Below, piece after piece: positions 10,570 through 21,193 of a stretch of DNA of 64,000 bases. The position numbers and the translations under genes are program-made. Under the pieces are notes generated by a model. That model was not told the origin of the DNA and searched no databases. It worked only from the letters and a program-made list of their open reading frames with translations. Source of the stretch: an uncultured Gemmatimonadales bacterium (GTDB lineage: Bacteria; Gemmatimonadota; Gemmatimonadetes; Gemmatimonadales; GWC2-71-9); the NCBI GenBank assembly GCA_963842945.1, contig CAWJIM010000024.1, positions 384,001 to 448,000 of the forward strand, read 5' to 3'. Every line of letters starts with the position of its first letter. The stretch's first letter is position 1.

Positions 10570-12391
10570 TCACTTCTGCTCCTGGACGATCCGCTTGAGC
10601 TCCGGAGGCATCTCGGACACCGGCTCGCGAGAGAGCCGCATCTGGGCATCCTCTCCCTGGCGGATCACGATGTTGTAGGTTGCTCCCGCCGGGTCTTTTT
10701 CCGGATAATCCTCCCGAAAATGGCCACCCCGGCTCTCTTTCCGCTCGATGGCGGCCCGAGTGATCGCCTCCGAGACAGTGAGCAGGTTCCCCAGGTCAAG
10801 CCCGGTGTGCCAGCCCGGATTGTACTCCCGGTTCCCGCTGACGCCCACCTGGGAGGCCCGTTGCTTCAATCGGTCGATCCCCTGCAGGGCGCGCTTCATC
10901 TCCGCCTCGGTCCGCACGATCCCGACCAGCGTCTGCATCATGGTCTGCAGCTCCTGCTGCACCTGATACGGTCCCGCGCCCTCGGAGCCACCACCGCGCT
11001 CGAAGGGGGCCAGGGCGGAGCGAATGACGTCGTCCACATCGGCGAGATCGACGTCTCCCAGCCGGTTTTCCCGGGCGAATCGCGGCCGCATGGTCGCCGG
11101 CACGTTTGCCGAACACCAGGAGATCCGACAACGAGTTGCCGCCCAGCCGGTTGGCACCGTGAAGGCCGGCGGCGCACTCTCCGGCGGCAAAGAGCCCAGG
11201 CAGGGTGGTGCTCTGGCTGTCGCCGTCCACCCGGATGCCGCCCATGATGTAGTGGGTGGTCGGACCGACTTCCATCGCCGTCGTGGTGATGTCGATGTCG
11301 GCCAGCTGTTTGAACTGGTGATACATGCTGGGGAGCTTCCGGATGATGTGCTTCCGGGCATCGGGCAGCTTGCGCTTGATCCAGGAGATGTCAAGGAAGA
11401 CTCCGCCGTGCGGACTGCCTCGTCCCTCCCGTACCTCGCGGAGAATACATCGGGCAACGTGGTCGCGGGTGAGCAGCTCGGGCGGCCTCCGGGCGGTCTT
11501 GTCACCCTGGGTGTAGCGCCACCCTTCTTCTTCGTTGTCCGCGGTCTGGCTCCGGTAGTTCTCCGGAATGTCAGCGAACATGAACCGCTTGCCCTCGCGG
11601 TTCAGCAGCACGCCACCCTCGCCCCGCACACCTTCGGTGACGAGGATGCCCCGCACGCTGGGAGGCCAGATCATTCCGGTGGGATGAAACTGAACGAATT
11701 CCATATCCTGGAGCGCGGCACCGGCGTGATACGCGAGCGCATGTCCGTCTCCAGTGTACTCCCAGCTGTTGCTGGTAATCGAGTAGGCCCTTCCAATACC
11801 GCCGGTGGCGAGGACCACCGCCTTGGCGCGATAGAGACGGAACCGTCCCCGCTCCCGGTCATACCCCACAGCAGCCGTCACTCGGGCGCCATCGGTGCAC
11901 AGCTGGAGCACCGTGCACTCCATGTGCACGTCGATACCCTGATGGATGCTGTGGTCCTGGAGCGTGCGGATCATCTCCAGGCCGGTCCGATCTCCCACGT
12001 GGGCCAGTCGGGGGTACTTATGTCCTCCGAAGTTGCGCTGGAGAATGCGGCCGTCTGCGGTGCGATCGAACAGGGCGCCCCACGCCTCCAGCTCCCTGAC
12101 CCGGTCGGGCGCCTCCTTGGCATGCAGCTCGGCCATACGCCAATTGTTCACGTACTGGCCGCCCCGCATGGTGTCGGCAAAGTGGACCTTCCAGTTATCC
12201 CGGTCGTCAACATTGGCCAGTGCGGCAGCGACGCCACCCTCTGCCATGACGGTGTGCGCCTTCCCCAGGAGTGACTTGCACACCAGTCCGACCTTGGCGC
12301 CCGCCACCGACGCCGCGATCGCTGCGCGGAGCCCGGCTCCGCCGGCACCGATCACCAGGACATCGTGCTCGAAGGTCTGGTATTCGGGCAT
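10570..12391 (-). CDS. sdhA: Succinate dehydrogenase/fumarate reductase flavoprotein subunit, frameshift near 11090
   Basis: GAGGAGLRAA, KAHTVMAEGG (FAD-linking His), QFHPTG, HYIMGG, HGANRLGGNSL, RKESRGGHFREDYP. Confidence 0.95.
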
Positions 12392-12392
12392 C

Positions 12393-12476
12393 AGTCGAGA
12401 GTCGCGCGTCGCGAGTCGCGAGAATAAGATCGGTTGCAATACAGCTCTCGAGTCTCATGACTCGTGACTCGTGACA
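12393..12476. repeat. Intergenic heptamer tandem repeats with inverted partner (gtcgcga)n / (ctcgtga)n
   Basis: Seen directly between the sdh anchor gene and sdhA. Confidence 0.7.
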
Positions 12477-13280
12477 TCACAGAATCCTCCAATCCGTCCA
12501 TATCCCCATCGAGCACAACCTGACATACAGATCGGCAAACGCCACCGCGAAGAGGCTGGTCCAGGCCCACCGCATATGGGCCCGATTGAAGCAGCTGGAG
12601 CAGTCGTATAGCCGGCGGCGCACCGGTCGTCGGGAGAGCTGATCCAGGTAGCCGCCGATCACGTGACGCAGGGAATGACAGCCAAGGGTATAGCCGCCGA
12701 GGAGGACCACATTGATGAGGAGCACCAGGGTTCCTACTCCGATGCCAAAGGACGTCTGTCCCGTTGCGGGATCGGTAAACCAGAGTGCCTTGTAGACGTC
12801 GGAGAGAAGCACCAACAGAAAGAGCAGGGCGATATAGAGGAAATAGCGGTGGATGTTCTGCACGATCAGGGGAAAGGCCGCCTCACCGCAGTACGTCTCT
12901 CGAGGTTCTCCCACCGCGCAGGCCGGCGGGTCGGCCCAGAACGCCTTGTAGTACGCACCTCGATAGTAGTAGCACGTCACCCGGAAAAGACCGGGGAACG
13001 GAAGAATCAGCAGCGCCGGCGAAAACACCAGCCAGCTGGGCCACCACGTGGGCCGGGGACCGAACCAGGCGTGGGGCGAGCCGCCGAACAACTCGGGTGA
13101 GTAGAACGGGGAAAGATAGGGTCCGTAACTGTAATGCTCACCTTGGAAGGCAGCCCAGGTGGAATAGCCAATGAAGGCCGAGAGCAGCAGGAAGACGGTG
13201 ACAGGTTGGAGCCACCACCAATCCTTGCGCATGGTCTCGCCGAAACGGCGGCGAACGATCGGGAGCTGCGCGTGCGCCAT
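12477..13280 (-). CDS. Succinate dehydrogenase membrane anchor, mycobacterial Sdh1 (Rv0249c)-like
   Basis: PYLSPFYSP, FRVTCYYYRGAYYKAFWADPPACAVGEP, QNIHRYF, GCHSLRH, RAHMRWAW; first gene of the sdh operon. Confidence 0.85.
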   Translation of the reverse strand: MAHAQLPIVRRRFGETMRKDWWWLQPVTVFLLLSAFIGYSTWAAFQGEHYSYGPYLSPFYSPELFGGSPHAWFGPRPTWWPSWLVFSPALLILPFPGLFRVTCYYYRGAYYKAFWADPPACAVGEPRETYCGEAAFPLIVQNIHRYFLYIALLFLLVLLSDVYKALWFTDPATGQTSFGIGVGTLVLLINVVLLGGYTLGCHSLRHVIGGYLDQLSRRPVRRRLYDCSSCFNRAHMRWAWTSLFAVAFADLYVRLCSMGIWTDWRIL

Positions 13281-13449
13281 GCCGGTACTCCCCTGGCTGT
13301 AATGGGTGCCCGCCGGAAGCTGGAACTGCGTGGCCGGCTCCAACGCCGGCCAGCCGGAGTATTCAAACCGCCAATGGCGCGCTGTCAATGCCGCGTCGTG
13401 GCCAGGCGGTCTCGAACGAAGGGGTGAGCTCGAAGAAGGGAGAAGGTCT

Positions 13450-14926
13450 TCAGGTGGGTCCCTGCTGACCCCAGCGTTGAGACGGTGGAGGCAAGTCCGG
13501 ATTGCGCAGCGGCGGAATCTTGCTGGTAAACGGCACGCCGGTGATTCGGTCGGTGTTGTCGTCTCGGACCCGATATGCGGCCGGAAAGTCGTCGGTCTGC
13601 TCCATCCAGTCCTGGAGCACGGCGGCCAGCCGGCGCACCTCTTCGGCGTAGCGAGGATCGTCGGCCACGTTCCGAAGCTCCCAGGGATCCGTTTTCAGGT
13701 CATACAGCTCGAGTCGCGCCCGGGGAACCTCGAAAAGCCGGCGCTGCGCCGAGGTGAGCCGGCCGGCTTTCGCTCGAGCCCGCAACGCAAGGAACGACGG
13801 ACTGGCCCCGATGTCGGCGGCGGTGCAGAGCGGTAGGTCGGTGTAGGCATCGGTTCGGATCAGCTTGAACCGGAGGGTGCGCACCGCGCGCTGATGCTCG
13901 TCGCAGTCGTGCCAGTTGCGTTCGCTGAACACGCGGGTGCGTCCGGTGAATTTCGTGGGCTGCGTGAGCAGCTCACTGAAGCTTTGGCCTTGCATCGAAT
14001 CGGGCCTGCCCGCACCCGCTACATCAAGCAGCGTGGGGGTCAGGTCCACGGTGCTCACCAGGCCGCGATCGTACACCGTTCCTGCCGGGATCACGTTTGG
14101 CCAGGAGAAGACGAGCGGTGTCCTGGTGCCGGAGTCGTACAGGGTGCCTTTCTCCCGGGGGAATGGTGCGCCATTGTCGCTCAGGAACAGCACCAGCGTC
14201 TTCTGCCGGAGCCCGCGCCGGTCGAGCTCCGCCAGCATCGTTCCGATGGCATCGTCCATGTGGGCGATGGTGTCGTAATAGTTCACCAGGTCGGCCCGGG
14301 TCTCGGGAGTGTCGGCGAGGTACGGGGTCAACACTACGCCGCCCGGCTTATGCCGGTGAGCTACACTCTCCGGATGATAGGGACGATGCGGCTCGTGAAA
14401 CGCTACCCAGAGAAAAAAGGGCCGGGTGCCGGTGGAATCGAGAAAGGCGGGAAAGACCGCGGCAGTCTGGGGCGAGTACCACTGGAACTGTTTCTCTCCG
14501 TTGGGACCGATATGGGTCTTGGCCATCATGCCGGTGAAGTAGCCCTGTGCCCTGCAAGTAGGCCGGAAGCAGGCGCACTCCGTCGGGCAGCGGAGTGTGC
14601 AAGTCTTCGGTGCGGGTGGCGTGGGAATACTTGCCGGAGAGAATGCTGATACGCGACGGGCTGCACTGCGGGCTGGTGCCGAACGCGTATTTCACCAGCA
14701 GTCCCGATCGAGCCAGGCGGTCGATGTTCGGGGTCCGGATGAGCCTGTTGCCATACACCCCGGTATCCCGCCAACCCAGGTCGTCGGCCACGAAAATGAG
14801 GATGCTGGGATGACTCTCCGAGACACCCTGGGCCCGGGAGGAGGCCGCAGGCAGCAGAAGAATGAGTCGGCGAATCGAGCTCAGCCATGAGCTTCGATTG
14901 GCGAAACTCAGGCCATGGCTTTTCAA
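13450..14926 (-). CDS. Formylglycine-dependent sulfatase, frameshift near 14545; start uncertain
   Basis: FVADDLG, RTPNIDRLA, CSPSRISILSG (CxPxR), SDNG.PFPREKGTLYDSG, ELYDLKTDPWE. Confidence 0.9.
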
Positions 14927-14991
14927 TTGCGCACTCGTTCCATGCTCTGGGGAGTGGGCGGTGACGGAAGTCAGGTACCCTGGCTTCCCTT

Positions 14992-15637
14992 ATGGCAACG
15001 CATTGTGCAAGCTGATGGAAGCGAAGACAAGCCCGACTGGAGTCCAACACCCAACGTATGCCGCCGAAACGAAGAGCCTCCCCAGTTAACCGGAACGCTG
15101 GACGCGATCCGCCGGATCATTCGGATACTGCGGCGCTCCTCCCGGCGGAGCGAGCAGCAGGTGGGCATTGGCGGCGCCCAGCTATTTGTGTTGCAGCAGC
15201 TCGCGGACGCGCCGGCGCGCTCCATCAACGATCTGGCCGCCCGCACTTACACCCATCAGAGCTCGGTCTCGGTGGTGGTTCGGCGGCTGGTCGAGCAGGG
15301 CCTGGTGGCTCGGCAGCCTTCCACCCGTGACCGGCGGCGGCGCGAGCTGAGGCTCACTTCAGCAGGAAAACGCCTGGTTTCCCGGGCGCCGGTACCGGGT
15401 CAGGTGCACCTGATCAATGCCCTGCTCAAGCTGCCCCGGACGGAGCTCAGGAATCTCGAGCGGGGGCTGGATCGGGTGGTGGCGGAAATGGGTGGCGAGG
15501 GTGAGCCGCCGGCGATGCTGTTTGCCGATGAGATGCCTTCAGCTCAGTCCGCCCCGAGGTCGAGCGGCCGCCGGCACTTGTCGCAGAAGACTTCCCGGGG
15601 CAAGCGGAAGACCCGGCCGGCCAGGCCGAGCCGCTGA
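14992..15637 (+). CDS. MarR family transcriptional regulator (start uncertain, probable 5' frameshift)
   Basis: AQLFVLQQL..SINDLAARTYTHQSSVSVVVRRLVEQGLV..DRRRRELRLT. Confidence 0.88.
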
Positions 15638-15921
15638 TGGGTGCCGCAATAGGGGCAGGCTCCTTCCGCAGAGCGGATCACCTGCCGCTGATTGAGCCGT
15701 ATGGTGGCGAAGATGAGGCCCAACAGCAACGCGCCCGGCACCAGGACGAAGTGGACCAGCGGAATGGGAAGCGCAATCAACGCCAGCGCGGCGCCCGCGG
15801 CGAGAGCAAGCCCCGCGCGGCGAACCCGCTCGCCGGCGGTGAGATCCTCTACCACCAGTTGGGCCTGGGTCGGGGTTGCCCCGAATCCCTTGAGCGGCAC
15901 CTCCAATGACTGGGTATTCAC
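15544..15921 (-). CDS. Small membrane protein with C-terminal Cys4 zinc ribbon
   Basis: Two hydrophobic helices then CPYC-x16-CDKC; convergent overlap with the MarR 3' end. Confidence 0.7.
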   Translation of the reverse strand: MNTQSLEVPLKGFGATPTQAQLVVEDLTAGERVRRAGLALAAGAALALIALPIPLVHFVLVPGALLLGLIFATIRLNQRQVIRSAEGACPYCGTHQRLGLAGRVFRLPREVFCDKCRRPLDLGAD

Positions 15922-15970
15922 CCCAACGTCCTTCTTGCAGCTCTGCGGGAGCGCCTCATGTCTCAATATA

Positions 15971-15984
15971 TATGGGATTCCATA
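15971..15984. promoter_or_regulatory. Palindrome TATGG-gatt-CCATA in an AT-rich divergent promoter region, possible MarR operator
   Basis: Seen directly; a degenerate copy TATGG-caac-GCATT lies at 14991-15004 at the marR start. Confidence 0.45.
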
Positions 15985-16087
15985 GAAACCATCACAACCC
16001 CGGCTGGGTCACTCTGGCCAGTTCGAGTTTGCTGAAACCCTGATCATACCGTACCTTACAGGAGACTCCCCGAACAACCGAGGTTTG

Positions 16088-17158
16088 ATGCTTCCCCACC
16101 GGCCGCATCTCGTCTCACGGGGCGGATTCGCCGTCCTGTCTGCAATTATCCTCCTCGGCCTGTCACCCAGGATTGCCTCCGGCCAGGGGTGAATGCCGGT
16201 CCGCTTTACGTCACCCAGTCTGGGTGGACATCGACAAGCCATTCTACCAGCCGGAAAATTCGAGCTCGGCCTCTCATATAGAAACCTCAAAGCCGATGAC
16301 TGGATCATTCTCGATACTCTGACCCCGTCAGATGGGTCCAGGGCGCCGGGAGGCGAGCCGAACGTCTTCAACATCAACTCAGTCGATTTCTCTCTCGCCT
16401 ATGGCTTAACCAATCGCGTAAGCTTCCAGCTGACGGTGCCCACCGCGAGCGGCAGCAATTCGCGAATCCATCCCGACGGCATTCGTCACGTCACCAATGG
16501 ATCCGGCATCGGCGACATCAACCTCGTCGGCACCATGTGGCTGCTGGACCCACTCACTCATGGAACTGGCAATGTCGCGGTCGGGCTCGGCGTGAAAGCT
16601 CCCACCGGGAGTAACACGATCACCGGAGATTTCGGCCTTCCCTCGGGAACCGTGCAACATACCGTCCACCCCGGCATCCAAATGGGGGACGGCGGCTGGG
16701 GTATCATCGTGCAGGCCCACGCCTTCAGCAGGCTGGTCGGGAGGCTGTCCGGGTACCTCTTCGGAGCCTACCAGCTGAACCCTCGGAACGTTAGCGAGGT
16801 GACCTTCACGCCGGCCTCGGTGAGTCCCTTATCGGTGCCCGATGTCTACCACGCCCGTTTCGGACTCGCCCTGGCGGTTCTGCCGAGACAGGGGTTGTCC
16901 GCCAGCCTGGGGCTTCGGGCCGACGGCATTCCAGTCCGAGACCTGATGGGAAGTAGCGACGGATTCCGCGCATCCGCTCGCTCCGTCTTCATCGATCCCG
17001 GCCTGTCATGGAGCATAGGCCAGAACGACTTCACGCTGAGTGTGCCGGTTCGGGTGCACGGAGAGTTCTTCCGGGGCCAGCCGCTCCCTGATGGTCAGAG
17101 CGACCGGGGTGACCTCGCCAAGAGGCTGATCTTCCTGGGTTACACCAGGCGACTATGA
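16088..17158 (+). CDS. Outer-membrane beta-barrel (MetA-pathway/phenol-degradation 'transporter'-like) with in-frame TGA at 16190-16192; candidate selenoprotein
   Basis: GAGG RBS; ATG 16088 is in frame with ORF 16193..17158 and gives MLPHRPHLVSRGGFAVLSAIILLGLSPRIASG-QG-TGA-MPVRF. Barrel motifs GIGDI, GLGVKAPTGS, QMGDGGWG; terminal amphipathic strand LIFLGYTRRL. Confidence 0.8.
16210..16229 (+). promoter_or_regulatory. SECIS-like hairpin GTCACCCA-GTC-TGGGTGGAC
   Basis: CACCCAG/CTGGGTG are exact reverse complements; the loop G at 16218 is 26 nt after the TGA and is followed by T. Confidence 0.65.
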
Positions 17159-17340
17159 CGTAAGGCGGCGCAACAAACCTATTGGAACGCAGCAGGCCCG
17201 GATTTATGCCTCGTTCCGGAAGGCCTCACACCGTGATCCATCGTCAGGAATCACTCGCAAGGCACTCGCCTGTCTGACACACATTCATCAAATCTCCGTC
17301 CGGTCGCGCCGGCTGGCTCGAACCAACACGGAGTCCACTC

Positions 17341-18381
17341 GTGAGTCTGGTCAATCGGTTGCAGGCCGGTTTGGGCCAACGTTACCGGGTCGAGCGCGAG
17401 CTCGGACGGGGCGGCATGGCCACGGTGTATCTCGCGGAGGATATTAAACACGGCTGCCGAGTCGCCCTCAAGGTGCTGCGGCCCGAGATTGGCGCCGCCC
17501 TCGGCGGGGACCGCTTCCTTCTGGAAATAAAGACGTCCGCCGCCTTGCAGCATCCCCACATACTCGGCTTGCTGGATTCCGGTGAAATACTGCCGGACCA
17601 TGGTTCCGGCCCCGGCCTGCTGTTCTACACCATGCCTTACGTCGAGGGGGAATCCCTTCGCGACCGGCTTGACCGCGAGCGCCAACTCCCGTTGGATCAG
17701 GCCATCACGATTGCGCGAGAAGTGGCCGATGCGCTGGGCTACGCCCACACCCACAATGTTGTGCACCGGGATATCAAGCCGGAGAACATCCTGTTGTCGG
17801 GCGGACACGCGATGGTGGCTGATTTCGGCATCGCGAGGGCGCTGAATACGGCGGGTGGTGAAAAGCTGACCGAAACTGGACTCGCGCTGGGCACACCGTA
17901 CTACATGAGTCCGGAGCAGGCCACCGGAGACTTCCTGGACGGCAGAGCTGATCAGTACGCCTTGGGCTGCGTGCTCTACGAGATGTTGGCCGGGACACCG
18001 CCCTTCCAAGGCTCGACCGGGCAATCGATTCTGGCCCGGCACGCCGTGGATCCGGTGCCGAGCCTTCGGACAGTGCGGGCGGCGATCCCGGCGGGGGTGG
18101 AACACGCCATCACCCGTGCCCTTGCCAAGTCGCCGGCCGACCGGTTTTCCACCACGGCCGAGTTTGCCCTTGCCCTGACGCAAGCTGGACAGGTGGGACC
18201 ACGGTAAGGACCAATACGGTCACCTCGCCTTCGTCGGGTGCGCATCGTCACTGGGGGGCACGCGTCGGATGGGCTTTCTTAGCTGCTGCGCTCATAGCAA
18301 TTGGGCTGATCACAACCGTCCGCGCCGTCAGTTCGAAGAAGAGCCCAGTAGTCTCGGCTGCGGAGGGATCCATGCGGTCGA
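17341..18381 (+). CDS. Hanks-type Ser/Thr protein kinase with TM helix (frameshift near 18195), C-terminal domain lost
   Basis: LGRGGMATVYLA, VALKVL, HRDIKPEN, DFGIA, GTPYYMSPEQ. An alternative frame continues RVGWAFLAAALIAIGLITTV..EGSMRS and then runs into the opposite-strand gene. Confidence 0.85.
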
Positions 18382-19460
18382 CTGAACGATCTCCGGGTGG
18401 GCGTGTCGTGCAGATAGATGGCGAACTGGTTTGGAAACATGAACTTCACCAGACCGAGCGGGTTCGTGGGACTTCCCCCTCTCTGTCGCATTCGAACTTT
18501 GGTCAGGTCTACCCGGGACCAATTGATCCGGCGGGGTCAAGACCCGTGACTGGTATTTGGCATCGACCACCTCAAAATGGTTGCGGACCAGGTAGGAGCG
18601 CTTTTTCCTTATTCTGGGGAGAATCTCGCGGACCAGGATCCGCTGCGGCACATATCAGTAGGGCCGGAAGACCACGAACGTCATCGAGTCGGCGAATACG
18701 GGAGTAGCGTTCTTGTACTCGTCCCCCACCACGACCCGCATGTTGAGCACCGGCTTGAGACGTCGTAGGCAGAAGCCTGTAATCGGGAATGTTTACTAGA
18801 CGTACTGGGGCCCAACTCCGAGGGCAGCCAGCGATAGCGCTCCAAATTGAGCTGCATCTGCCGAATCCGGACCTGCACCGGCACGTTGAGGGCGGCCAAC
18901 GTCGCGCCGCCCACAATCCCATTGCTCGGGATCCCGTGGCGCGACTGGAAATGCGCCACCGCTTTGGCCACCGCGCGGTTGTAGACTGGTTTGTTCCCCG
19001 TACCGGGTAGAGGTCGCCCGTTATCCTGAGCCGCCGACGCAGCACCGCTACACGGGCGCCGCGGGCGCCCCGCCGGAGACTTGCTACCGCCCGGCACCCT
19101 GGGCCAGCCGCCGTGCTCGAGGATTTCACTAACAGCAAGCCATTTCACCAGGTCGGCATACCCAGGTAGCTGTGGCCGGAGCGGAGCCACTATGCCCTGG
19201 AACTCTTCCGCCTGCACCGCCCCCCGCAGCGTCCCCTCGATGCTCGAGCGCCGCGCCTTGATGTACCACTCGCTCGCGACTGCCTTCGGGTCGAGCCGGC
19301 CCGCCAGCAAATCAGCTCCGTAGTCGAGGAACCGTCTGGTGAGCTCGAGGTCGAGCACGGCGAAGGCCTCGGGCCCTCTGGATCACGGGGCAGAACCACC
19401 AGCGTCTATCGGCTGGGTCTCGGCGCCGGACTCTAGCCCTCCTCGTCCCACGGAAGATAA
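18382..19460 (-). pseudogene. Fragmented murein L,D-transpeptidase (YcbB/LdtD-like)
   Basis: Pieces AVAHFQSRHGIPSNGIVG (PG-binding), NLERYRWLP, VNIPDYRL, NPLGLVKFMFPNQFAIYLHDTP. Many frame breaks, no intact start, catalytic SHGC missing. Confidence 0.75.
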
Positions 19461-19655
19461 CGTACCGGCGACCCCCGGCCCCAGCGTGCCCCAGGCCGGG
19501 CTTGCCAGCGCCCCTCCTTGGGGGGGTCTTCTTCTCCACGGCGATGTCTCCTTTCCGTTGCGGGCACAAGGCCCGTGGTGATTGCCTCACCCGGGAAGGC
19601 TGCATCGCCTTTCGTCTCTTACACACCTATTGAACCACCTCAGGAGGGTGCCAAG

Positions 19656-19997
19656 ATGCCGGAAGTTCGGATGAAGGTTGCGCCCGATACAGTAGCGTAT
19701 GCTGACGGGGAGAACCACAAGCTCATAGTGGAGTTCGCCATCCCAGGAGCGCCAGCGGATACCATCGATCTAAAGATCCTGGAAGACAGCGTCCACCTGA
19801 CAGCGCCAGCAAGGGACATTGAGTACGTTTCCGCGCTGGCTTTAGCATGGCAGGTAAAACCTCACAAGGCCGAAGCGACCTACGAGCACGGCCTGCTCCG
19901 AATCGAGGTGCCCTTCAAAGATCCGATGGAGGATGCCGTGCAGGTCGCCATCAAAACAGGTGTCGTGGAAAGCAAGGCCAAGAGACTTAAGACCTGA
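19656..19997 (+). CDS. Hsp20/alpha-crystallin small heat shock protein
   Basis: RBS CAGGAGG; EFAIPG..IDLKILEDSVHL..AEATYEHGLLRIEVP. Confidence 0.85.
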   Translation: MPEVRMKVAPDTVAYADGENHKLIVEFAIPGAPADTIDLKILEDSVHLTAPARDIEYVSALALAWQVKPHKAEATYEHGLLRIEVPFKDPMEDAVQVAIKTGVVESKAKRLKT

Positions 19998-20145
19998 TGA
20001 ACATGGCCTTTCCTCCGCCGACCTCTCCCTCGACCGTTCACGCGATCGCCGGCCTCCGTTGGCTCTTCGGCCATTGCTTAGTCCTCAGTTCCTTCACCCG
20101 AACACTTAGCTATACTCCAAGGTGTCCCTGTGCTCGAGTACACCG

Positions 20146-20376
20146 ATGGATCCTGTCTCCTATAAGGGCTTTGCCATCACGGCGCGCACGTTTCAGATCC
20201 ATGGCTCCGGACGCTGGACCCTGGATCTCCTAATTGGCCGGCGTAGGGGCTTACGGGCCTTCAGCGCTCCCACCACATACTCCACCGAAATGGCGGCCAT
20301 CGCGGGTTGTTGTGAGCGCGGACGGCGCATCATCGATGGGCTGGTGCAGGATTGCTCAGTCGATGATTTGTCGTGA
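20146..20376 (+). CDS. Small hypothetical protein
   Basis: Plausible globular 76-aa ORF (YKGFAITAR..GRW..GRRIIDG). Confidence 0.55.
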   Translation: MDPVSYKGFAITARTFQIHGSGRWTLDLLIGRRRGLRAFSAPTTYSTEMAAIAGCCERGRRIIDGLVQDCSVDDLS

Positions 20377-20526
20377 GACTGGGGCGTAACCCGCTCATCC
20401 AGCCGGCCTCCGCCATGCAGAGCTGCAGTCTGCCGGGCCCTGAATGTTATTCCCGGGGGCGGTCGTGTTCGCCCTGGCTACAGCGTTCGTGATGCGCGAC
20501 GAGGAGCCCACGGGAAGGAGCACGCC

Positions 20527-20880
20527 ATGGTTGAGCCGAGACCTCACCTGCCGAGGGAACTGCCGCCCGAGACCCGGGACTACTTGGCGCACCGGCTGGA
20601 CGGCGCGCGCGATCTCTATCTCCTGGCGCTGGCCTTGGGCGCACGCCCTGACGGGTCCGCGCTGTTCGGGCGGATGATCCGTGAGGCCCGCATCCACTTC
20701 GCGGCGGTGATCGAGGAAGCGCGGATCGCCGGGCTGGACACGGCGGCCATCGCCGTGATGCTGGGCAAGTTGAACATCGAGTTGGCCGACAGCATCCGCC
20801 CTGAGCTGTGGGCGCGCGTCGAGCAGCTCCTCGCCGAGCGAGCCGCCCGCAAACCAGCGGAGCGGCGGGGACTGCGCTGA
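20527..20880 (+). CDS. Hypothetical helical protein
   Basis: RBS AAGGAG before ATG; normal high-GC codon usage. Confidence 0.65.
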   Translation: MVEPRPHLPRELPPETRDYLAHRLDGARDLYLLALALGARPDGSALFGRMIREARIHFAAVIEEARIAGLDTAAIAVMLGKLNIELADSIRPELWARVEQLLAERAARKPAERRGLR

Positions 20881-20920
20881 AGGTTGCCTGCTCGCCCACG
20901 GGGCCCCAGAGGAGCAACCT

Positions 20921-21193
20921 GTGACGTACGTGATCGCCGAACCCTGTATTGGCGTCAAAGACCGGTCGTGTCTAGACGTGTGTCCGGTCGACTGCATCTA
21001 CGAGGGCGAAGATCAGCTCTACATCGAGCCCGACGAGTGCATCGACTGCGGGGCCTGCGTGCCCGCATGCCCGGTCACGGCGATCTTCACGGAGGAGGAG
21101 GTCCCGCCCAACTGGCAGTCGTACATCGCGAAAAACCGTGATGTGTTCAAGAGCGACCAGCCGCCAGCGAAGAAGACTCCTGAGAAGAAATAA
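20921..21193 (+). CDS. Ferredoxin (7Fe FdxA-type)
   Basis: RBS GAGGAG; MTYVIAEPCIGVKDRSCLDVCPVDCI..ECIDCGACVPACPV. Confidence 0.95.
   Translation: MTYVIAEPCIGVKDRSCLDVCPVDCIYEGEDQLYIEPDECIDCGACVPACPVTAIFTEEEVPPNWQSYIAKNRDVFKSDQPPAKKTPEKK

Follow-up and report, generated by a model that had tools for sequence, protein, structure and literature searches.

Within the 64,000 nucleotides (nt) analysed here, which comprise positions 384,001 to 448,000 of contig CAWJIM010000024.1 from an uncultured Gemmatimonadales bacterium (GCA_963842945.1) and are hereafter termed the window, a gene on the forward strand (16088..17158; 355 codons plus a stop) is predicted to encode an outer-membrane beta-barrel in which codon 35, an in-frame TGA, would be translated as selenocysteine (Sec; written U when the gene is translated throughout). 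The gene opens with an ATG (16088-16090, +), which is followed by 34 open codons and preceded at a distance of 4 nt by a GAGG (16080..16083, +), read from the sequence as a possible ribosome-binding site; the spacing between the two is short, and a TTG at 16085 offers an alternative in-frame start. The first 32 residues (MLPHRPHLVSRGGFAVLSAIILLGLSPRIASG; 16088..16183, +) have the hydrophobic core of a signal peptide, with a putative signal peptidase I cleavage after A-S-G. They are followed by a Gln-Gly dipeptide (16184..16189, +), probably mature residues 1 and 2, and by the TGA itself (16190..16192, +), residue 35 of the precursor and residue 3 of the mature protein. A candidate selenocysteine insertion sequence (SECIS) hairpin, UCACCCA-GUC-UGGGUGG (16211..16227, +; apical loop GUC at 16218..16220, +), lies within the S-P-S-L-G-G codons, and the barrel domain (residues about 58-356; 16259..17155, +) is predicted by AlphaFold2, Foldseek and a sequence profile to be 12-stranded and similar to FapF and COG4313 proteins. 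The true stop (17156..17158, +) is also a TGA, has no SECIS context, and falls where the homologues end; alignments with homologues cover both flanks of the in-frame TGA. A first-pass annotation of this DNA had pointed to the GAGG and to the upstream in-frame ATG, both of which are present, and had remarked that the open reading frame (ORF) track starts the barrel at 16193 with no signal peptide. The translation table 11 list does place the start there, at an ATG directly after the TGA from which the frame is open to 17156-17158, giving a product of 321 amino acids (aa) that lacks the leader.

A search of 5.8 billion proteins, with 788 matches among the 8000 candidates scored, returned relatives which were called only 'hypothetical protein' where a source name was given. 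For 102 of the 120 best matches, the database entry starts at M-P-x-R, one residue past the TGA of the window, and an in-frame stop, where conserved, makes annotated starts cluster at a single column in this way. A further 16 were truncated elsewhere, whilst the other two (P0105 and P0118) were longer and carried a signal peptide followed by ...AAQG-C-EPIRFT..., with Cys at the column occupied by TGA in ...SGQG-TGA-MPVRFT of the window. These two proteins display the 'AQGC' start that had been mentioned in the first-pass annotation. When one genome per species was scanned at the DNA level, 245 stretches were matched, 169 of which encoded relatives, and the best 80 of these loci (L015-L094) were kept. 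The codon at the column was TGA in 48 and TGC or TGT in 29, the mixture of TGA and TGY which had been put forward as the expected sign of selenocysteine; it was unreadable in three (L073, broken upstream; L090, partial; and L092, frameshifted). Neither TAA nor TAG, either of which had been named as counter-evidence, was found at the column in any of these 80 loci. One TGA locus (L020, genome G006) is flagged as unpublished, and the count without it is 47.

Together with the window, the 77 readable loci form a set of 78 sequences, 49 of them TGA forms. Gln-Gly directly precedes the column codon in all 78, and in 77 a start codon lies 18-55 codons upstream together with a hydrophobic 10-mer; the proposed order of leader, Q-G, TGA (or TGY) and barrel is thus beyond chance, since it recurs across sequences of other species. 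The codon following the TGA is a potential start in 36 of the 49 TGA forms (ATG in 34, GTG in two) and a non-start codon in the other 13 (GTC in four, CCC in three, and GAG, GCC, GCA, GCG, GTA or CAG), which, along with the conservation of Q-G and of the leader, argues that the barrel is not a separate leaderless ORF. TGA is likewise the codon in L015 (92% identity over 314 aligned columns) and in L017, the closest relatives. Hence two features by which selenoprotein genes are recognised were found at this locus, namely an in-frame UGA aligned with Cys in homologues, and the conservation of UGA, not of another stop, with coding sequence kept on both sides.

A third such feature is a hairpin supported by covariation. 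The hairpin of the window has a 7 base pair (bp) stem, the 3-nt loop GUC, a 25-nt spacing from the UGA and a folding energy of -8.1 kcal/mol. According to the available portion of PMC13188914, the bacterial SECIS (bSECIS) model comprises a stem of 4 bp or more, a loop of 3-9 nt with G in its first two positions, mostly with G or U next, a location 16-37 nt after the UGA and an energy of -7.5 kcal/mol or lower; in a strict test the hairpin of the window agreed with all four constraints. This test, with an ungapped stem, was passed by 32 of the 49 Sec forms, by 3 of the 29 Cys forms and by 67 of 980 codon-shuffled Sec sequences. In an alignment of the 49 sequences (A2), the G of the loop was invariant and the U nearly so, 89.1% of helix cells were paired, as against at most 60% with the 3' partners slid by 1-3 columns, and the covariation score was 0.248, compared with 0.138 for shuffles (0/500 of which reached 0.248) and at most 0.104 for the slid controls. 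The pair of columns 24 and 36 (CG in 14, GC in 12, AU in four, GU in three, UA in two and unpaired in 11) joins the third positions of a Ser/Thr codon and a Gly codon, and the variation of standard pair types at third codon positions indicates compensatory change at synonymous sites. The Cys forms contain one extra codon (P-V-N-L-G-G in place of P-S-L-G-G) and no conserved hairpin. SECIS-like hairpins are kept in a few Cys forms (L070:3037-3084, L066:172-219 and L083:3046-3093), and that of L070, GUCGCCGAGUCUGGCGGC, passes the bSECIS test; these three loci look like recent Sec-to-Cys conversions.

The genome of the window (G000; 24 contigs, 4.3 Mb, 87% complete, and 6% contaminated according to the genome table) encodes the machinery for selenocysteine insertion. 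A selA gene (C2:138515-139839; 286.9 bits, above the cut-off) is split over three frames, and a selB gene (C2:8832-10665; 235 bits in pieces, just under the cut-off of 242) over several, which points to indel errors in the assembly. The selD gene (366 bits) itself has one in-frame TGA, reading SHGAG-TGA-ACKLGP, and a SECIS, GGCGCAG-GUC-CUGCGCC, with the same GUC loop as the barrel hairpin. Two tRNA-Sec genes were found (C1:150247-150344 and C15:14374-14471), and the second copy is possibly due to a duplicate contig or to contamination. The presence of selA, selB, selC and selD, by which the first-pass annotation had proposed to judge its claim and which is another hallmark of a genuine selenoprotein gene, was therefore borne out, with selD in a Sec-containing form. 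Across the relatives, selA was found in 47 of 48 TGA genomes versus 20 of 29 Cys genomes (Fisher p = 4.6e-4); these genomes are incomplete metagenome-assembled genomes, in which a missed selA is no proof of absence. The window genome also harbours a second Sec-barrel paralogue (contig C23, about 138335-139524). With about 40% identity to the protein of the window, it reads ...AAAGQG-TGA-MPFRTASSVGVQG, has a leader of the same type and a hairpin of its own, and is frameshifted near 139204-139209.

The extent of the barrel superfamily was gauged with a profile search of 1.84 billion cluster representatives (clusters at 50% identity), in which 1317 clusters were matched at E <= 0.001, 722 at <= 1e-10 and 322 at <= 1e-30. 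Among the best 150 clusters, 54 have a leader followed by Q-G-C, in line with the QGC relatives anticipated in the first-pass annotation, and 22 begin directly past the column. A sister subfamily was searched with P0229 as the query, and of its 120 best matches 101 begin at that same place and none shows a leader with QGC. The DNA of this subfamily was checked in 301 sampled Acidobacteriota genomes; 24 of them matched, at 26 loci, with TGA at 15, TGC at 10 and the motif not found at one; one of the 15 TGA loci is the same place as L026, and another (L110, genome G126) is flagged as unpublished. The hairpin of the sister subfamily lies at the same distance and differs in sequence (CGCGCC, a 7-nt loop CGUGUUY, and GGCGCG), and it too covaries (CGCACC/GGUGCG, CUCACC/GGUGGG and CCCGCC/GGCGGG). 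In total, the TGA forms amount to 62 distinct species-level loci. A quick maximum-likelihood tree (IQ-TREE; 76 rows, with L030 and L082 dropped as too short) implies eight switches between Sec and Cys under the most parsimonious reconstruction, with at least four imposed by well-supported branches. Gemmatimonadota, Acidobacteriota, Verrucomicrobiota and Spirochaetota all include Sec forms, and one clade consists of 20 Cys forms.

At the predicted cleavage site of the 78 leaders, residue -1 is Ala in 54, Gly in 21, Ser in two and Pro in one, residue -3 is Ser in 33, Ala in 31, Leu in eight, Ile in three, Val in two and Gly in one, and a Pro lies upstream in 65. On these residues, the leaders most likely undergo signal peptidase I cleavage just before Q-G-U/C, leaving a mature protein that begins Gln-Gly-Sec, as the first-pass annotation had proposed. 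The Sec or Cys is the sole Cys-type residue in the mature sequences inspected. AlphaFold2 returned a confident beta-barrel both for the window protein (predicted local distance difference test, pLDDT, 81; predicted template modelling score 0.80) and for a mature Cys form (pLDDT 88). The top Foldseek match was FapF (5o65; E 3.6e-12), which was also the sole PDB match of the family sequence profile (E 5e-8). The COG4313 channel 4rl8 was matched with a template modelling score of 0.80 normalised to the target and a root-mean-square deviation of 3.6 A, which, with barrel pLDDT of 81-88 in the two models, identifies a 12-stranded barrel fold; FadL-type channels were more distant than either. The window protein matched no Pfam family and no NCBIfam model at E <= 0.01. 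Weak matches to PF13557 were obtained for 16 of 81 family members (best E 9.5e-5), and among distant relatives P0257 (30.2 bits) and P0163 (26.3 bits) exceeded 22 bits.

The genomic neighbourhood of the family was surveyed at 77 loci, where the nearest non-overlapping ORFs on the two sides (145 ORFs) were compared with Pfam, and by tblastn of 21 redoxin sequences against all loci with 3-kb flanks; an all-against-all clustering of raw ORFs in the flanks was set aside, since in DNA as GC-rich as this it was swamped by spurious overlapping frames. The recurrent neighbour is a TlpA-like AhpC/TSA-Redoxin protein that carries a signal peptide and the motif W-x-x-W-C-x-P-C. Within 3 kb, it was found at 20 of 49 loci of Sec forms, for the most part just upstream and on the same strand, and at 22 of 29 loci of Cys forms, for the most part directly downstream, with several overlapping the stop codon of the barrel; in the large Cys clade the redoxin is directly downstream. 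That the barrel and redoxin stay paired in two gene orders speaks for a functional connection. Thioredoxin-fold genes were also seen in the Acidobacteriota sample, directly downstream on the same strand at 4 of 24 loci. Fusions also occur, in which the barrel is joined to AhpC/TSA (P0247 and P0252), to a thioredoxin domain with WCGPC (P0170) or to two HMA domains with GMTCxxC (P0229), in each case through a linker without a second signal peptide. An HMA domain occurs in 21 of the 120 relatives closest to P0229 (down to 54% identity), and 2/120 have a redoxin domain. HMA domains bind copper or soft metals. The sister-subfamily barrels with one or two C-terminal CopZ-like HMA domains include P0229, P0271-P0278 and P0283, whilst P0247, P0252, P0170, P0332 and P0373 are fused to AhpC/TSA or thioredoxin domains, and almost all of these fused entries start right after the Sec column.

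We propose that the ribosome would start at the ATG at 16088 and make a Sec-pathway signal peptide, and that at the UGA (16190-16192) selenocysteine would be inserted instead of termination occurring, with SelB and Sec-tRNA(Sec) recruited by the hairpin within the coding region (16211-16227), 19 nt past the UGA. Signal peptidase I would cut before Gln33, the predicted cleavage site, to give a mature Gln-Gly-Sec terminus, followed by a flexible segment of approximately 20 residues (MPVRFTSPSLGG...) and by the 12-stranded outer-membrane barrel of FapF/COG4313 type, both termini of which would face the periplasm if the analogy with FapF holds. At the periplasmic mouth of the barrel, the N-terminal selenol may act as a ligand or nucleophile for a thiophilic metal, for which copper would be the likeliest, or for another soft electrophile, and a TlpA-like partner may keep it reduced. 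This proposal draws on the Sec or Cys being the sole Cys-type residue, on the pairing and fusion with TlpA-like proteins and on the HMA fusions of the sister subfamily. That the UGA is decoded as selenocysteine is predicted with near certainty, and that this takes place in a secreted barrel protein is very likely. The refuting conditions named in the first-pass annotation were examined, and none of them overturned its reading. A metal or redox role of some kind for the Sec or Cys is reasonably probable, whilst copper specifically, as the metal, is a tentative suggestion that we think rather unlikely to be the right one. The soft-metal or redox function guessed at in the first-pass annotation keeps the standing of a conjecture, with indirect support from the thioredoxin-fold neighbours and from the thioredoxin-fold and HMA fusions.

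Several observations weigh against selenocysteine decoding. At the read level, run X1 gave one contig of 151 nt identical to the window over 16054-16204, which reaches only 12 nt past the TGA; its source may be the sample of the window genome. Run X2 gave nothing, X3 gave a 50-nt piece at 90-95% identity and the RNA run X15 covers only 16358-16497, and none of the four qualifies as a bridge over the TGA. The read check advocated in the first-pass annotation thus produced a contig identical across the codon, but one that lends weak support. The assembly has indel errors, which split selA and selB across frames, and the window alone would leave room for a base error at the TGA. It had also been argued earlier that the errors in the window are mostly indels and that a substitution is thereby less likely; this argument is unneeded, because conservation across species settles the point. 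As for the hairpin, 17 of the 49 Sec forms fail the strict ungapped test owing to a mismatch or bulge at one pair, and a looser script allowing bulges passes 42/49 Sec forms along with 9/29 Cys forms and 23/196 shuffles. This script is less specific and missed the hairpin of the window itself through the trimming of terminal pairs, and the strict test was relied upon. A scan of 16100-16350 against Rfam at E <= 10 returned only chance matches to unrelated families. The downstream hairpin noted in the first-pass annotation is real and conserved, but the whole 86 nt after the UGA fold no better than shuffles (z = +0.41), hence the weight of the hairpin lies in its conservation and covariation and not in its folding energy. 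Lastly, selA was not found in one TGA genome (G035).

The view that the TGA stems from a sequencing error, or from TGC by a recent nonsense mutation, so that the gene would be an artefact or a pseudogene, draws support from the indel errors in selA and selB and from the weak read support at the codon. It is rejected as vanishingly improbable, given that the column holds TGA in 48 further species-level genomes and also in the paralogue within the window genome, with neither TAA nor TAG found anywhere, that the closest relatives L015 and L017 share it, and that the conserved, covarying hairpin follows only TGA forms. The locus might instead make two products, one from a short ORF that ends upstream at the TGA and the other a barrel with no leader, from the ATG at 16193, an arrangement that suits the ATG after the TGA in 34/49 TGA forms (including the window), the GTG in two more, and the 102 of 120 best database entries annotated as starting there. 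An outer-membrane barrel without a signal peptide cannot reach the outer membrane, the next codon is a non-start in 13/49 TGA forms, the Cys forms are continuous across the column, no ribosome-binding site other than a coding GGGG precedes 16193, and the upstream ORF is signal-peptide-like in 77/78 sequences; we therefore reject two products as hardly credible. Low-level UGA read-through occurs in bacteria, and insertion of a residue other than Sec, by a near-cognate Trp or Cys tRNA or under a reassigned code, would accommodate the TGA genome with no detected selA (G035). Such decoding is very improbable, in that the TGA forms track selA (47/48 vs 20/29) and carry a hairpin with a SelB-type G-U loop at the standard distance. 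Code reassignment was itself rejected, since the gene itself stops at a TGA and the ORFs obtained with table 11 in the window are ordinary. Were Sec inserted after a leader of lipoprotein type, cleavage by signal peptidase II would fall immediately in front of a lipid-modified Sec or Cys; A-Q-G-C is loosely lipobox-like, and a PROSITE-style lipobox rule fits 13 of the 78 leaders. The other 65, that of the window included, depart from this rule, mostly through a charged residue at about -7, a Q at lipobox position -2 is unusual, and the leaders suit signal peptidase I instead (A, G or S at -1 in 77/78, a small or aliphatic residue at -3 in 78/78 and an upstream Pro in 65/78). The lipoprotein alternative was accordingly rejected as improbable.

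With selenocysteine decoding in a secreted barrel preferred, what the residue does is where a serious rival is met: the Sec or Cys may be a purely redox nucleophile with no role in metal binding, whether peroxidase-like, part of a disulfide or selenylsulfide relay, or a redox gate on a channel plug, and recycled by the TlpA-like protein. Thioredoxin-fold partners are the commonest link (42/78 loci and three kinds of fusion), Sec typically serves in redox catalysis (available portion of PMC13188914), and movement of the N-terminal plug opens the pore in FapF-type channels (available portion of PMC5557850). Conversely, the CopZ-like HMA fusions in 21/120 sister-subfamily relatives point to metals, and the mature protein has no resolving Cys. 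We know of no peroxidatic motif consisting of a lone Cys at a fixed two-residue spacing from a cleavage site, and on balance regard the purely redox role as possible, though less than probable. Certain findings also count against the proposed function more generally. There is no redoxin at the window locus within 12000-21000, the best redoxin matches elsewhere in the window genome are only 33-37% identical, and a redoxin accompanies only about half of all loci; the HMA fusions belong to the sister subfamily and not to the clade of the window; and the N-terminal residues (1-49 in one model and 1-20 in the other) have pLDDT below about 50. A complex prediction for the mature Cys-form barrel of L067 with its adjacent TlpA-like redoxin scored 0.00 (mark 0.32) and speaks neither for nor against binding. 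A more specific version of the metal role, which we consider speculative and unlikely, is that the NH2-Gln-Gly-Sec/Cys tip would be a metal hook resembling the amino-terminal copper- and nickel-binding (ATCUN) motif, NH2-X-X-His, and would trap copper or a different soft metal where an outer-membrane metal channel opens to the periplasm, with the TlpA-like protein keeping the tip reduced and, in some lineages, fused HMA domains receiving the metal. By chemical reasoning only, the metal would be held by the free amine, by two backbone amides and by the position-3 selenolate or thiolate; that the Sec or Cys is invariably separated from the cleavage site by two residues hints at involvement of the free amino terminus.

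Other genes around the barrel were recorded. Upstream lie a 240-aa ORF resembling MarR-type regulators (14915-15637, +) and a 140-aa ORF (15544-15966, -) with hydrophobic segments and two CxxC pairs, which is zinc-ribbon-like; in L015 and L017, a TlpA-like redoxin occupies the position of these ORFs. Further upstream, two ORFs of 359 aa and 192 aa (13450-14926, -), which overlap and differ in frame, look like halves of one sulfatase-like gene, probably split by an indel error; the N-terminal half, which carries a C-x-P-x-R motif, we take to be sulfatase. Directly downstream of the barrel is a Ser/Thr protein kinase gene (17341-18207, +). At 16 of the 77 related loci, the gene nearest to the barrel encodes a kinase, in many cases with TPR repeats, and an OmpR-type winged-helix and TPR protein neighbours the barrel at six Acidobacteriota loci; judged without a background rate, this kinase/TPR neighbourhood looks like more than chance. 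A PAP2-superfamily protein (426-547 aa) is the nearest neighbour in L035, L038, L054, L070, L086 and L089, and 13 loci with such a neighbour were suggested by the raw-ORF clustering, itself dominated by spurious frames.

No description of the family was found in NCBIfam or Pfam, nor in the available portions of the selenoprotein inventories PMC13188914, PMC9312934 and PMC13326102, and it could be included in BSepDB online or in a groundwater metagenome-assembled genome study. Outer-membrane selenoproteins have been predicted before, namely the MtrB/PioB-like GSU2204 (NF041027) and an FCYXU-type TonB-dependent receptor (NF049945), both given in the available portion of PMC13188914; these are unrelated to the window family, form larger barrels and carry Sec at another position, and neither model matched the window protein, for which no NCBIfam family was found at E <= 0.01. 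Term searches of the available portions of the three inventories found no other outer-membrane or barrel selenoprotein entry and returned neither Gemmatimonadota nor Acidobacteriota as a phylum name, and the tables, as far as available, contained no family like this one. In a full-text literature search, no paper combined selenocysteine with COG4313, Phenol_MetA_deg or FapF, selenocysteine with Gemmatimonadota gave only incidental mentions, and outer-membrane beta-barrel selenoproteins led only to two of these publications.

We rate the proteins described here as a new family of bacterial Sec/Cys selenoproteins with a SECIS in the coding region and an unusual Sec position and cellular location. 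Because gene callers cut at the UGA, hundreds of outer-membrane proteins from abundant soil phyla are recorded without their signal peptide and their one reactive residue. Recognition of the family would add a sizeable group of selenoproteins, enlarge the selenoproteomes of Gemmatimonadota and Acidobacteriota, and show Sec in an unusual place, at residue 3 of a mature channel of the outer membrane. For a barrel superfamily that is uncharacterised, the link to TlpA-like and HMA domains provides a testable lead towards a function with thiophilic metals or in redox chemistry. Should the ATCUN-like hook be true, outer-membrane transport would gain its first metal ligand based on selenium, and Gemmatimonadota and Acidobacteriota a new copper route, through a previously unrecognised class of outer-membrane metal channel.

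The closest known proteins are the Cys-form 'QGC' barrels of the same family (for example P0105 and P0118, and the loci in L031-L091 from Gemmatimonadaceae, Verrucomicrobiota and Bacteroidota), which show 36-60% identity, share the leader, Q-G, the x-P-[VI]-R-F motif and the barrel, and are in many cases paired with a TlpA-like redoxin. They differ in having TGC or TGT for UGA, an extra codon and no SECIS hairpin, and they also occur in genomes without a detected selA (9/29). The best structural superposition of the barrel is with the COG4313 channel of Pseudomonas putida F1 (4rl8; PF13557, Phenol_MetA_deg), to which the window protein has approximately 15% sequence identity whilst lacking any Pfam match, that to the PF13557/COG4313 model included. 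COG4313 proteins have a proposed link to the uptake of hydrophobic or aromatic compounds, and to our knowledge no N-terminal Sec or Cys motif has been noted in them. FapF, the amyloid secretion channel of Pseudomonas, is a 12-stranded barrel with an N-terminal plug and a periplasmic N-terminus (available portion of PMC5557850), and resembles the window protein in being both its top Foldseek match and its sole PDB profile match (5o65). FapF is unlike the window family in having no Sec or Cys tip, the neighbour scan found no coiled-coil domain and no fap operon neighbours at the window-family loci, and relatives score 18-32 bits against the NCBIfam FapF model (NF058560), the cut-off of which is 700. 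TlpA reduces copper-binding cysteines before metal insertion (available portion of PMC7558416), and an outer-membrane barrel with a single N-terminal Sec or Cys as a TlpA target was not described in the literature searched, as far as its text was available. The nearest functional parallel is the system of TlpA with ScoI/CoxB and CopZ-type HMA chaperones: its substrates are inner-membrane or periplasmic copper proteins, unlike the outer-membrane barrel here, yet both of its domain types also adjoin or are fused to barrels of the window family.

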